A DNA stretch of 58,806 bases, filler included, from Dirinaria sp. TL-2023a (GCA_051941275.1; 8 parts of 8 records of this genome joined end to end with filler, not necessarily neighbours in it), one strand, 5' to 3'; positions 52,660-58,118 are shown, counted from the whole stretch's first letter. Notes: a model not told the origin generated them from the letters alone. Translations and numbers: made by a program.

Positions 52660-53367
52660 ATGGCGGATCCCGGCACCATTGCTACTCTTGCTTTCTCGAT
52701 CGCCCAATTTGCTGCGCAAATAGGTGGTGTCACAGATGAGACAAAGGCAGTTCTGCAGCAGCTCAAGACCATCGAAAGAGATATCAAAGTCGCTGAACGC
52801 TTGTTCGAAACTAATAAGGCTCGCCTTCGCGACGAGGATCAATTTCTAATCGCCGAGGTGATTGATGATTGTAGAAGCGCCCACAGCAAAGTAGCTAGCG
52901 TGGTCGAATCGGCTCGCAAGAGTATAAATAAAGTCGGCACGGTCGATGTCGCTCGACGATTTGACTGGATGATTCGGAAAAGTAGCGCAGCTCGCATCCA
53001 TCAACCTCGACTTGATATTTGCCATAGATCGTTGCAGGGTCAAATTTTATGGCTACGCTCGCTACCACCTCCAACAACGGTCGACGAGGCTCCCACCCAC
53101 GAGGAGGCATCGCTTGGCCGCTTGTCGCCTCGAGATAATCAAGCATATGATAAGACGCAAGCAATTCTCGAAACTGAAAAGATTGCGGCGGATCTCACAG
53201 TGCGCGCTAGCGATGTCGAAGTGGTGCCACTGAAACATCCAGAGCGTGTCCTACATGAGGCATCGCAACGTCCCGCGGGAAAGAAGCGAAAGAACACGTC
53301 TTCATTGCATCCAGAACGATTGATGCACGAGGAAGAGCAACAACATCACAGGAAACGCTTTGGATGA
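52660..53367 (+). CDS. Stand-alone HeLo-like/SesA-like (fungal STAND N-terminal-type) helical-domain protein with low-complexity tail
   Basis: MADPGTIATLAFSIAQFAAQIG hydrophobic N-terminal helix, amphipathic helices and RRFDWMIRK...RLDICHRSL in the first ~135 aa, as in HeLo-like/SesA-type domains. No NB domain follows. Confidence 0.6.
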   Translation: MADPGTIATLAFSIAQFAAQIGGVTDETKAVLQQLKTIERDIKVAERLFETNKARLRDEDQFLIAEVIDDCRSAHSKVASVVESARKSINKVGTVDVARRFDWMIRKSSAARIHQPRLDICHRSLQGQILWLRSLPPPTTVDEAPTHEEASLGRLSPRDNQAYDKTQAILETEKIAADLTVRASDVEVVPLKHPERVLHEASQRPAGKKRKNTSSLHPERLMHEEEQQHHRKRFG

Positions 53368-53657
53368 TCTCTGGCCCATTTCCCTGCACTTGACACTCAT
53401 CGATGCATCCGCCATTTCGATTAGCCAAATAGGTGTTCACAATGGTACGACACAAGATTATTCGACGAAGTGTCGGTGGATCGCATCGACCTTAAGGAAA
53501 ATCATTGTCAGGACTAAGCGGTTGGAACAATCAGTATTAGGTAGAGCATACAACGTGGTTGCAGAGTCTAATGAATTGGGGACAGCAATCTGTCAACACT
53601 ATAAAGACAAATAGGATGCTAATGCGAACGATATTTCCGCTTATTATCTAACAACCG

Positions 53658-54980
53658 TCAATCTTCCTCGTCGTAGAGCACGGCTTTGTATATCTCCTGC
53701 CATCGCATCCTTCGATCTGCACTATCACCCATCTTGATCAATGCTGGAAAGACCACGAAACTGAAATCCGAGTTGGACCTCGATGTTTTGTCTGCTAAAT
53801 TGGAGGTAGAAGAGCGCTCCAGTCGCTTACGCCACAGAAATTCGTACGTTTCTGGCTGCAACAGCAGCAATACTCCGAGCTCGGCGGCTTTCTTTACTAT
53901 AGCAATTAATTGATCGATCCGAGCCTGCTCATTGCAGCCTGGAGCCGCTAGCACCGTGAAATGCTGGTGCAAAAGCTGAGCCATCCATTTGACCTGGATG
54001 TATTGATGCTCTGTAACCTTTTGGTTCTCTCCACGTTGTTGCAACCGCATCAGGTTGCCAGCAATCCTGCGCAAAGTAGAGGACCCTGCGAAGCGAACTA
54101 TCGCGATATCAGACTCAAGTAATCACGTCGAGGGACTTTTCGCTTTGTACTCACGTTTTTCCGGACACTGATTAGAGGTCATACTTAAAAGCGCAACAAT
54201 CTCTTTAGGGAGCAGCGTATTTTCGGGATCTCCATCCGCCATCATCCCCTGGACGATAGTCTGCGCAAATAGCCTCCGAAGCGCTGCAAGCCGGAACGAT
54301 TCGAGGTCGAGAAGGTCGCTGGGAAACCGGAAGTCTTCATCAAGCCCATCAATTAGCCCTTGAAAGATTTGATTGGGGCAGGAACGTGGTGAGCAGCTGT
54401 AGTAATTGTATATATGCGCGGAGATGGAACGTTCAAGGTTAGCAGCTGCCGATGCTATGCGGGAGTCTTCAGCTGGCTGAAGCAGGAACCCCTCGAGGTC
54501 TGTCGCGCTTCTCTGTATGTTTCTTGGCTTATCTTTTGAACTGTCGGCAGCTTTCAGAGGTTGTTCTTGCGGTAGAGGACTGGGACTCCACAACGAGGAA
54601 AACCTGCTTAAAATTGAGTATCCGCCTGAGGTCGACGCCGCTGACCGCGAAGCTGGCAATATCGATCCTTGACTCCGCTCGTCTCTTCTTTCTGATGCTG
54701 TCACGCTGCTCTTGCTGTGGCTTGATGTTCTTTTGTCTTTTGGGTGACGTTTTTCCCTGTCTGAATCTTGTTCTTGAGAAGCGGAATGTTGGGAGGACCG
54801 TGACGGTTTGCCCAACTCTTGAATCCGTGACGGCCTCTTGGTTTCCGAGGTTTGGTGGGTAATTGGCTTCGATCTCGGGATAGGGCCAGCTGAAGCACCG
54901 TCCATGCGTGCCGGACGACCAGCTTCAGAGGGAGACACTAATGGATCAGACGCCGTTTTACGCGATGAAGAAATCTCCAT
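53658..54980 (-). CDS. Uncharacterised 421-aa protein: disordered N-terminus, helical core, MIEAP/GIL1/GrpE-head-like C-terminal motif (2 exons)
   Basis: Exons 54980-54155 and 54097-53658 join in frame via a 57-nt gtgagt...tag intron. The C-terminus reads LIAIVKKAAELGVLLLLQPETYEF...FVVFPALIKMGD...EIYKAVL. Confidence 0.75.
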
Positions 54981-55705
54981 TTCTTTATTCCCTGAGGCAA
55001 TCGGGTACGTGACAAAGGCTAAAGCAGATAGATTGGTCTGGTTACTAGGTGAGGTTGATGTTCAATGAGCCTCAGCTTGCTTTAGATATAATCACAACAG
55101 GATTACTAGCAAGGCTGCACTTGAAGACTTCTAGTGAATTGAGCGCGACTGCCAAACTTGTAAGTTTCTAAGTGTACAGACTCTACCGGCGTCACTTCAG
55201 TCTTGCGTGGCTTTGCAGCACACCATCGCCGCTTTTACTCGGCAGGACCATCTTTGCCTAATGCAGCGTTAGTCATGCATGAGGTGGAAGCTTCAGCCTC
55301 ACCAATTGCGCCGATCAAGATGCCTTGCTTATTCATAGTCTGCCATTGCTGCTCTCTTTGCTACAATGGCTTACTGCTTACAGGCTGCGCCTCTTGAGAT
55401 GTTCCATTTACCTGACCCGGATGTAGCAGAAGGCTCATAGCGAGGCGCCATGGTTTACGAATGTACATTTCGATGCTAATTCGCTGGTAGGAAGAAGAAA
55501 CACCCTTGAGATTCTTTACTATTCATTGATCCCTGTGCAAGTCTTGTTGTTCTCCTGTCTCGACGTCTATAAATCGAGACATCCTTTCCTCGTAATTTGG
55601 TTCGATTTATTCCTATAATCGGCCTCTCATAGTAATGGTAATATAGCTCATCTCAACTCTATATTACCCCTAATCTCCGTTAACGTCGTAAGACTCTTGC
55701 ATAAA

Positions 55706-58118
55706 ATGTCGGCAGACATGATTATCGGCGTCGATTTCGGCATGACATATACAGGTTTTCCTTTTGCGCCTTGTGTCATATCAGGAGGCTGATTGATCTA
55801 GGAGTCGCATATTTCGTTCCAGAAAAGACGGATCCCGAACGTCCAAAGTTACTGCAGAGCTGGCCTGGAAAAGAGGGCAAAACAGAGAACAAAGTTCTGA
55901 CCTCACTTGTATACCATGGAAATAAGCTGAAGTCGTGGGGCTTCCTGTGCGATCGTCCAGATCAAGAAGAGCATCCAAATCCTCAACGGAAACAATACTT
56001 CAAACTGTGGCTTGATCCGGCACACCTGACCGAGGTTTGGCCTGATGATGACGGTCCATCCCACGAGGAGGTAAGGAAATGGTTTATCGATTACTTGAAA
56101 CGGCTCTACTCTCATATCGAGCGAAGTATGTGCGCGGGTCCGTTTGAAAAACAGTGGAAATCGAAGGTGGATTTTGTCTTTAGCGTTCCGACGACTTGGA
56201 AAACTCAAAAAGTCTTGAACAGTTTCGAACAGTGCATTAGAGATGCAGGTTTTGACCATAAGAAGAGACACAAATTTTCTATTGGACTTACCGAAGCAGA
56301 AGCGGCGGCAATTCATACTTTCAGCTCTAAAGATGTGGATTTTGATGTAAGTTGCCTAAATTTTCACGTGATGTTTACTGATAAAGCATCGTAAATGTAG
56401 GCTCGGGATCTTATACTTGTCTGTGACGCTGGAGGAGGCACTTCAGTAAGAATCTTCCACAGAGAGATCGTGAGAAAGCTTCATTGATCGTACCATAGGA
56501 TGCTGCTCTCTTGGAGGTCGTACACAAATCCAAGGATCTCCCTCGACTTAAGCAGTACGGCGTCGACTCCGGTAGGCTCTCCCTGCTATTCTCGCTGCTC
56601 TTCATTCTAAGCTTTGGTCGCGGTCTAGGGAAGCCTATCGGATCAGTAAACATTGACAAAAGGTTCATCGAGCTTGTATCTGGGAGACTTAGCAAAGCCC
56701 TGGAAAAGGTGCCTTCTCTTGCTGATGACGAGCCACAATGGGCTGAGGACACTGCATGGGAGATGGCGCAGGGAGAGTTCCAATACCACAAATGTGCCTT
56801 TGGGACCATCGAAGGTACTCATGAGAAGTTCCGAATCAAGATACCCGATTTTCCGTCCTCTAAGAACATCCCCGATGCTTTTATAGAGAAGAAGCACATG
56901 CTTTTCACGCGGTATGTATTTGGCGGTTGGGTATCCAGAGCGTATAGTGGCTGATACAGAAAAGTAAGGATATGAACAATTTATTCGACGAGCAGATCAG
57001 TGGCATCTACTCGATCCTCGACGAGCAGATACGGTACTTGAAAAAAGACAAGAAACAGCTTGTGAGTTTTAAGCGCCTTGTACCGCGTCGTCGTACGTCT
57101 CACACAGCTAATTGCAGAAACACCTCGTTCTCTCCGGTGGGCTTGGAAGCTCGGCATACGTGAAAAAGAAGCTTCAAGAACGCTATGTTAACAATACCAA
57201 AGCTTATCCAAATGCAAAACATTTGAAAATCTACACCGCGGATGAGCCGTAGGTTAAGCCGCTCCTTACCGCTACCTTTGCTTACAGAGATGATCCAGAC
57301 AAATCGCAGTAGTTCAGGGTTTAGTTGTCAATCATGCGCAACAGCGCGAGTCCGGCGTAGCGACGCTGAAAAGTCGTAACAGCCCAGTCAGCTACGGTGT
57401 CCTATGCCAAGAACCGTACGACAAAGAGAAGCATGTAGGGTACGATTTGTGGAAAGACGATATCGATGGCAAGATGTATGCCGTCGATGTCATTCGTTGG
57501 TTTATCAATAAGGTCAGCCAACAGAGAATTGCCAATCGCTGTCGGAGTCTTTGCTCGATCTAATACAACCTAGGGCGATGCGGTGGAACCGGACACACAC
57601 AAGTCACACGAGTTCAAGAGGAAATTCTTGCCTAATGAGCTGCCGCAAGATCACCACTGGAAAAGCACCGTGGTGATTTCTTGGAGGGATCTCAAGTATC
57701 GCCCCAAAAGGCTGGATGACGGTACTCCCTCCCTCACCCTAATTCCCCTTTCCCTTCTCAAAAGCCATGTCATCAAAGTCCTTTCATCTCTTCGAAATCG
57801 CATAACATCCCAAGCTAACAACTCTCTCCTCCTCCTCAAGGCGTCAAGAAACTCTGCACCCTCACATCCGACACCTCGAGCCTCGACGCGCGCGACTTCC
57901 AGAACATCGCGCCCTGGTACAATCCCTGGGGCGTGGCCTACCACGTCGCGTACTACGAGATCAGAGTCAATTTCGAGGTCGGCAAGCTGCTGTTCGAGGT
58001 CTGGTGCAACGGCGCGAAGCTGTCCAAGGACCAACCCATCCACGTGCGCTGGGACGAGGGCGCCGAGCTGGCGAAGCCGGAGAACGTGGGCCGGGCGAAG
58101 GATACGTTCGTGCGATGA
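55706..58118 (+). CDS. Non-canonical HSPA12-like Hsp70-family ATPase (multi-exon)
   Basis: Spliced motifs IIGVDFGMTYTGVAY, WPG...ENKV, FSVPTTW, TEAEAAAIH, ILVCDAGGGTSD, GSVNID, LVLSGGLGSSAYV, QIAVVQGLV, SPVSYGV. No canonical substrate-binding lid or EEVD. Confidence 0.9.

Follow-up and report, generated by a model that had tools for sequence, protein, structure and literature searches.

Near the end of a 58,806-nt stretch of DNA from the lichen fungus Dirinaria sp. TL-2023a (GCA_051941275.1), referred to here in its full length as the window, three genes lie side by side: gene i, which encodes a small helical protein, gene ii, and gene iii, which encodes an Hsp70-like ATPase. The locus raises the question of whether these three neighbors belong together and, if so, in what kind of system. 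A first-pass annotation of the window had proposed that they are a fungal immunity or cell-death module. The explanation that we favor, and to which we give a probability of roughly 0.6, is that filamentous ascomycetes have an old three-gene cluster, conserved, co-regulated and centered on the Hsp70-like protein, of which the Dirinaria region is a copy. Conservation and co-regulation of the three genes as a unit are well supported, and the trio probably functions as one, because it recurs in distantly related fungal DNA and shares a promoter motif.

The first-pass annotation had itself named a lack of recurrent co-localization as grounds for its refutation, and the co-localization of the three families was indeed found to be recurrent. 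Metagenome contigs were scanned with an Hsp70-like alignment, up to 10 kb was taken on each side, and the resulting regions were analyzed by six-frame translation and profile searches. The scan yielded 51 loci, of which 44 were distinct at 95% identity, with six small groups of loci that were at least 95% identical. A homolog of gene ii was situated directly upstream of the Hsp70 gene, on the opposite strand, in 28 of the 30 distinct loci that had at least 1.2 kb of upstream sequence, the 14 other distinct loci being too short for gene ii to be assessed. Of the remaining two loci, one (L018/L020) had gene ii on the same strand and one (L037) had no gene ii; the former, with gene ii at 86-919 (+), is the sole distinct locus in which gene ii is in tandem with the Hsp70 gene and not head-to-head with it. 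Beyond gene ii, a homolog of gene i was identified in 15 of the 18 distinct loci with at least 1.5 kb of sequence there, as well as in L007, and was absent from L005, L034, and L043. The gene i homolog was on the plus strand (i.e., convergent with gene ii, as in the window) in four loci and on the strand of gene ii in 12. Direct matches to the window protein i by phmmer had E-values of 3e-10 to 1e-4 and always covered residues ~10-150, and other homologs were connected by jackhmmer and BLASTP.

The same three families emerged when all open reading frames (ORFs) of at least 70 residues from the 18 distinct long loci and the window were clustered by BLASTP: the Hsp70 family was present in all 19 sources, gene ii in 17 and gene i in 16, and the next clusters after the trio were antisense shadows of the trio genes. 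In the ~190 kb of flanking sequence, with the trio masked, no ORF family was common to more than two of the 19 sources. The proteins themselves have diverged extensively, with median pairwise identities of 34% for iii, 23% for ii, and 21% for i, and the pairwise identities of the three correlate with one another (r of 0.94, 0.95, and 0.88). Deep divergence of the trio within changed surroundings indicates that the three genes have traveled together for a long time.

Evidence for co-regulation comes from the regions between genes ii and iii, which in 24 distinct loci measured 318-1234 bp (from the limit of the gene ii ORF to the hidden Markov model start of the Hsp70 gene). The most widespread 7-mer in the ii/iii promoters was AGGCTGA, present in 16 of 25, while the best 7-mer in controls reached no more than 11 in 100 dinucleotide-shuffled sets and no more than 12 in 100 sets of random real windows; its extended form, AGGCTGAR, occurred in 15 of the 25 promoters against 1.4 expected. 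AGGCTGA was also located within 700 bp upstream of the gene i homologs in nine of 17 sources (2.9 expected), a count that none of 300 random sets reached. In the 58.8-kb window the 9-mer AGGCTGAAG has exactly two copies, one in each promoter region of the trio (Table 1). A third copy of AGGCTGA near the trio, at 55786-55792, is located in intron 1 of gene iii over a likely branch site (CTGAT) and is probably not a promoter element. Among known promoter elements, no enrichment in the ii/iii promoters was found for the heat shock element, Rlm1, the calcineurin-dependent response element, the MluI cell cycle box, AP-1, the unfolded protein response element or CCAAT, and the stress response element showed no more than mild enrichment (present in 18 of 25 against 13.5, a count reached by nine of 200 random sets). 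The first-pass annotation had suggested that genes ii and iii may be a dedicated, co-transcribed pair. The head-to-head arrangement in 28 of 30 loci and the enriched promoter 7-mer uphold the dedicated pairing; "co-transcribed," however, is wrong, because the two genes are divergently transcribed.

At the Dirinaria locus itself, the three genes exist, are intact, and are positioned as the first-pass annotation had stated, all on a single 7,243-bp piece of the assembly, with genes i and ii convergent and genes ii and iii divergent (head-to-head). Its spacing of genes ii and iii was also borne out, 725 bp separating the first ATG of gene ii (54980) from the ATG of gene iii (55706). Their products are on record as hypothetical proteins of the Dirinaria sp. 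lichen-fungus assembly. The window is a concatenate in which an N-run, TTAATTAATTAA and a second N-run at 51464-51563 are followed by the piece that carries the trio (51564-58806), whose length matches that of the contig recorded for each of the three proteins. A long poly-A tract precedes the spacer, the region 51386-51563 being an artificial join of two contigs, and the last bases of the window are a poly-T run (58787-58806). At 52098-52255, ~400 bp upstream of gene i, two 46-nt arms of 83% complementarity, 66 nt apart, form an inverted repeat.

Table 1. Coordinates of the three genes, their promoter features and other features of the window
Feature	Coordinates	Strand	Description
Gene i	52660-53367	+	Single ORF, 235 aa; recorded as predicted protein P0001
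Gene ii	53658-54980	-	Two exons, 54155-54980 and 53658-54097; intron 54098-54154
Gene iii	55706-58118	+	Multi-exon with many short introns; atypical Hsp70-superfamily ATPase, ~620 aa
ii/iii divergent promoter region	54981-55705	.	725 bp
AGGCTGAAG motif	52505-52513	+	147 bp before the gene i ATG
AGGCTGAAG motif	55291-55299	-	Within the ii/iii divergent promoter, pointing to gene ii
Ty3/gypsy-type pol	9244-13182	+	Uninterrupted 1,313-aa ORF: reverse transcriptase, RNase H, integrase, SH3_Tf2-1, chromodomain
Synthetase fusion	36906-39776	-	Class II tRNA-synthetase domain (D/K/N type) fused to LPG_synthase_C
Alpha/beta hydrolase	40177-41271	+	Abhydrolase_3; divergent neighbor of the synthetase fusion

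The gene that anchors the cluster, gene iii, had been called a non-canonical Hsp70 with intact ATPase motifs and no EEVD, and each part of that description agrees with our results. Its first exons, with splice sites read from the sequence, are 55706-55754, 55802-56346, 56401-56445, 56499-56571, and then 56629 onward. A tblastn comparison with three orthologs spans the full gene and revealed no exon-internal frameshift or stop. The deposited model, P0003, seems to lack the residues GVAYFVP, seven in all, where the first intron is spliced, and to treat a 57-nt in-frame intron (56572-56628) as coding sequence. The motifs DFGMTYTG, CDAGGGTSD, and LSGGLGSS, which we take to be the phosphate-1, phosphate-2, and adenosine motifs of Hsp70, respectively, are all present; within the family G383, G384, and G386 (of LSGGLGSS) are invariant and G202-G204 (of CDAGGGTSD) nearly so. 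The protein ends in ...AKDTFVR and so has no EEVD.

By itself the gene iii protein had no Pfam match and no PDB sequence match. Its relatives number at least 125 and come from several classes of ascomycetes; some of these relatives carry the source names "Hsp70 family chaperone" or "Heat shock 70 kDa protein 12A" (HSPA12A). A profile of 42 family members matched the ATPase domains of mortalin and DnaK in the PDB with E-values of 1.3e-7 to 1e-5 over profile positions ~188-398, which places gene iii in the Hsp70 superfamily (actin-like ATPase fold), and seven of the 42 members matched Pfam HSP70 (best E 2e-5). The Hsp70 peptide-binding domain had no sequence match in the family, the profile aligning to solved Hsp70s within the ATPase domain only. 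Judged from its sequence, gene iii thus encodes an Hsp70-superfamily ATPase of an atypical kind, in which the nucleotide-binding motifs are intact and the C-terminal part is specific to the family. Many of its relatives bear a precomputed Pfam label, PF27033.1, which may be relevant to how far the family has been described before.

The partner gene, ii, has a 57-nt intron in its deposited model, P0002, which begins at the second Met (54905), and there is an in-frame alternative acceptor at 54086. The protein consists of a disordered Ser/Arg/Lys-rich N-terminus followed by a family-specific domain at residues ~135-396 (P0002 numbering) and has the C-terminus ...FVVFPALIKMGDSADRRMRWQEIYKAVLYDEED. 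In an AlphaFold2 model built from a 91-sequence alignment the domain comprises eight helices and then a small C-terminal beta-sheet that contains the FVVFPAL...GD motif; confidence averaged over 10-residue blocks was mostly ~76-98 across residues 131-396, with two blocks at 53 and 58. A word-seeded search had returned the query alone; the idea that gene ii is an orphan was rejected, because a full HMMER search of the representative library gave 93 relatives at E ≤ 1e-3. A scan of metagenome contigs with an alignment of six close gene ii relatives gave no match, and neither did a comparison of the protein with PDB sequences.

The proposed likeness of gene ii to GrpE or MIEAP was not supported by sequence, as neither Pfam family was matched by any of 91 members at E ≤ 0.01. 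Even at E ≤ 1, GrpE (PF01025) had no match to the gene ii exons or to P0002, and MIEAP (presumably PF16026) had none to P0002. Fold searches gave no convincing relative of the domain: the best match by Foldseek had an E-value of 0.25, with neither GrpE nor BAG nor any other cofactor among the matches listed, and the best by VIA-align was a Cas11d helical bundle (Z 5.9), with no GrpE in the 50 best of 48,161 chains; the lack of GrpE or BAG among the listed fold matches of ii, or of HeLo or MLKL among those of protein i, does not exclude those folds.

Most relatives of protein ii are tethered to a membrane. Each of the 24 metagenome gene ii ORFs inspected carries a single strongly hydrophobic segment, preceded by a Ser/Thr-rich stretch and followed by the conserved domain, and a Ser/Thr-rich ectodomain with a single transmembrane (TM) segment was identified in 27 of the 36 library relatives of at least 380 residues, the more distant relatives being proteins that span the membrane once and are rich in Ser/Thr at the N-terminal side. 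The Dirinaria protein has no ectodomain, and no TM segment was found in it or in any minus-strand frame of 54900-55705. Its nearest library relatives (P0124-P0126, P0132, and P0139) are likewise without a TM segment. Partial extra gene ii-like ORFs beside the complete one in L012 and L030 (~4980-5651 and 5725-6639, minus strand) and in L005 (1066-1779) suggest that the partner gene has been duplicated in tandem in some loci. Gene ii and the Hsp70 gene are 3.9 kb apart in L030.

Protein i has an N-terminal helical domain of ~135 residues, the first helix of which is hydrophobic, followed by a charged tail that is probably disordered. A single-sequence AlphaFold2 model placed helices at residues 4-20, 26-55, 58-91, 96-107, and 109-133, with a mean predicted local distance difference test score of 65. 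A word-seeded search again returned the query alone, and the candidate status of orphan was dropped after the locus analysis revealed homologs. The first-pass annotation had assigned the protein to the HeLo/SesA-like domains, an assignment that found no above-threshold Pfam match for either the window protein or 16 homologs: HeLo (PF14479), HeLo-like/PigL_N (PF17111), and SesA (PF17107) gave none at E ≤ 1 for the former and none at E ≤ 0.1 for the 16 homolog ORFs. When the threshold was relaxed to E ≤ 10, HeLo appeared in one of 15 members (E 0.042) amid 24 unrelated families. Foldseek of the single-sequence model gave nothing below E 0.09 and returned generic helical bundles, with no HeLo or MLKL among the listed matches, and VIA gave generic bundles with a best Z of 10.7, under the noise level of the tool for helical proteins. 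The weak fold matches include the coiled-coil domains of plant NLRs, namely NRC4 (Foldseek E 0.1) and the wheat G10 resistosome (Z 9.6, rank 10), and clusters partly labeled PigL_N or SesA were weak leads in the ESM-Atlas (0.88 and 0.87, ranks 10-11). The protein had no match to PDB sequences, and the family profile gave weak helical matches there (best E 0.079).

A [LP]PxY motif is found within 40 residues after the helical domain in nine of 17 gene i family members, against 0.29 expected, and precedes a long disordered tail. The Dirinaria protein is without PPxY and reads ...EAPTHEEAS at the equivalent place. Several homologs (e.g., L012, L025-L028, and L030) end in a C-terminal motif, RxWLxxxAxRSDxGH, which could act as a peptide that docks onto ii or iii. 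No C-terminal motif of the amyloid type was found in Dirinaria protein i, whose C-terminus is charged.

In the explanation that we favor, the gene iii ATPase would work on or with the gene ii domain, normally at the membrane. Protein ii would be the dedicated partner of iii, its domain in most relatives forming the cytoplasmic part of a single-pass protein that is Ser/Thr-rich on the outside. Protein i would serve as the adaptor or the output of the unit. PY motifs recruit ubiquitin ligases of the Rsp5/Nedd4 type; the PPxY of protein i points to recruitment of such a ligase, and the unit would accordingly monitor or regulate a surface protein, be it the protein's state or its turnover. The Dirinaria trio is itself a derived and apparently soluble form, because its protein ii is without the membrane anchor and its protein i without the PPxY.

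Several points weigh against this explanation. One locus (L037) is without gene ii and three (L005, L034, and L043) are without a detectable gene i, and the loci were fetched by two peptide patterns of this particular Hsp70 subfamily, so that other fungal Hsp70-like paralogs may lack such partners. AGGCTGA is absent from nine of the 25 ii/iii promoters; moreover, it was found post hoc and some of the loci are related (L001/L002 and L025/L026), and the motif counts therefore overstate independence. It is from this motif that we infer the co-expression of the trio. The Dirinaria copies also have neither the TM segment of ii nor the PPxY of i, and the membrane and ubiquitin-ligase parts of the explanation depend on these two features.

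The trio can be compared with several known systems. Hsp70s are served by cofactors in the DnaK-GrpE-DnaJ system and by exchange factors of the BAG type, e.g., the membrane-anchored Snl1 of yeast. As in these systems, the ATPase of the trio has intact motifs and is genetically tied to a partner, which in most relatives is tethered by a single TM segment; unlike in these systems, neither Pfam nor fold searches assign the partner to a known cofactor family, gene iii has neither a sequence-recognizable substrate-binding domain nor EEVD, and the unit includes a third conserved gene. With animal HSPA12, gene iii shares a divergent ATPase domain and a non-canonical C-terminal part, the likeness otherwise consisting of the names given by the sources. 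Wsc/Mid2/Msb2-type proteins are fungal cell-surface sensors, and most gene ii homologs resemble them in having a Ser/Thr-rich N-terminus, one TM segment, a basic stop-transfer stretch, and a cytoplasmic part. That cytoplasmic part, however, is a folded ~260-residue domain of an undescribed family and not a short tail, there is no WSC domain, and Dirinaria protein ii is without ectodomain and TM segment. Protein i is similar to the stand-alone HeLo, HeLo-like, and SesA proteins that have NLR partners (HET-S/NWD2) in being small, in having a hydrophobic N-terminal helix and a bundle, and in being clustered with presumed regulators, whereas the trio differs from such systems in having no above-threshold family match, NLR neighbor or amyloid motif and in the PPxY that follows the protein i domain in nine of 17 members. 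Finally, GTPase-centered conflict systems with HSP70 and GrpE genes have been described in bacteria (Kaur et al., 2020, PMC7159879). The fungal trio is like these systems in being a multi-gene unit around a divergent HSP70, and is unlike them in being without GTPase, tubulin, GrpE, and effector-associated domains, no homology of the partners having been found.

The first-pass annotation had gone further than linkage, presenting the trio as an immune or cell-death system in which protein i is a HeLo-like membrane executioner, protein ii a GrpE/MIEAP-like exchange cofactor, and protein iii a trigger-sensing Hsp70 that gates i. We consider this unlikely. The linkage of the three families on which it was built is real, protein i does begin with a hydrophobic helix within a helical bundle of ~135 residues, and there are weak leads of the HeLo type (the ESM-Atlas clusters at 0.87-0.88, the single HeLo match at E 0.042, and the NRC4 and G10 fold matches); against these stand the lack of an above-threshold HeLo, HeLo-like, SesA or PigL_N match in the window protein and its 16 homologs and the position of the protein i fold matches under the helical-bundle noise level of the tool. 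A precedent for the proposal is given by the bacterial conflict systems with HSP70 and GrpE components (PMC7159879). No GrpE or MIEAP, however, was found by Pfam in the 91 members of the gene ii family, nor did the listed fold matches include either. Evolution is faster in proteins i and ii than in iii, as the immune proposal would have it, and yet the correlated divergence of the three proteins across loci fits vertical descent. Further against it, no NLR, HET or other death-domain gene was identified on the contig of the trio or among shared neighbors (NACHT and NB-ARC were found neither on the 7.2-kb contig nor in the other window ORFs of at least 130 residues, of which 32 of 60 were scanned, nor shared between loci), PADLOC gave no match, and the C-terminus of protein i is charged and not amyloid-like.

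A different version of this idea, which we regard as similarly doubtful, extends to the Pezizomycotina as a whole: the mucin-like single-pass protein would report surface damage or non-self to the Hsp70, which would release or activate a distantly HeLo-like, membrane-acting protein i. Such an immune or cell-death pathway would be independent of NLRs and would have become fully cytosolic in the lichen fungus.

A conserved, co-regulated unit, as we favor, also has to be set against the simpler possibility that the three genes are neighbors by descent only, i.e., a stretch of unbroken ancestral synteny without functional coupling. The correlation of the identities of the three proteins across loci is what any co-inherited block would give. 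We nevertheless hold this to be very improbable: at median identities of 21-34% the trio is kept in 16-19 of 19 sources and families of the flanks in no more than two, 28 of 30 loci preserve the head-to-head order of ii and iii, and one 7-mer is enriched in both promoters. Slightly less probable still is a mobile or selfish element that has the trio as its cargo or core. Such an element would account for the trio being conserved amid flanks that are otherwise unrelated, and the 46-nt-arm inverted repeat upstream of gene i (52098-52255) counts in its favor; against it, no transposase, integrase or reverse transcriptase was found on the contig or common to the loci, no terminal repeats surround the trio (the sole long-range inverted match being poly-A against poly-T), and the copies are anciently diverged, with six small groups of loci at 95% identity or above.

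The remaining entries of Table 1 are located to the left of 51.4 kb, where a neighborhood with the trio is not established, because the artificial spacer separates off the piece that carries the trio. They are a retroelement ORF and a divergent pair formed by the synthetase fusion and the hydrolase, a pair that recalls ErdS/ErdH, the ergosteryl-aspartate synthase and hydrolase of fungi.

A literature search of titles and abstract openings found no paper on fungal HSPA12-like genes, their partner genes or an Hsp70-like cluster of this kind. The trio is an Hsp70-centered multi-gene unit with two undescribed partner families. Filamentous fungi have many atypical Hsp70-like genes that are annotated merely as "Hsp70 family" or "actin-like ATPase" and have no assigned function, and it is uncommon for fungi to have conserved clusters of genes that are not metabolic. 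Here one such Hsp70-like subfamily has stayed linked, in spite of deep divergence, to two partner families without Pfam assignment, and the three genes have a promoter element in common. The trio offers a concrete handle, as the three genes are amenable to deletion, tagging, and binding tests in genetically tractable fungi, and its ATPase could prove to be part of a membrane-tethered Hsp70 machine, of a new cofactor pairing or, less likely, of a new cell-death pathway.

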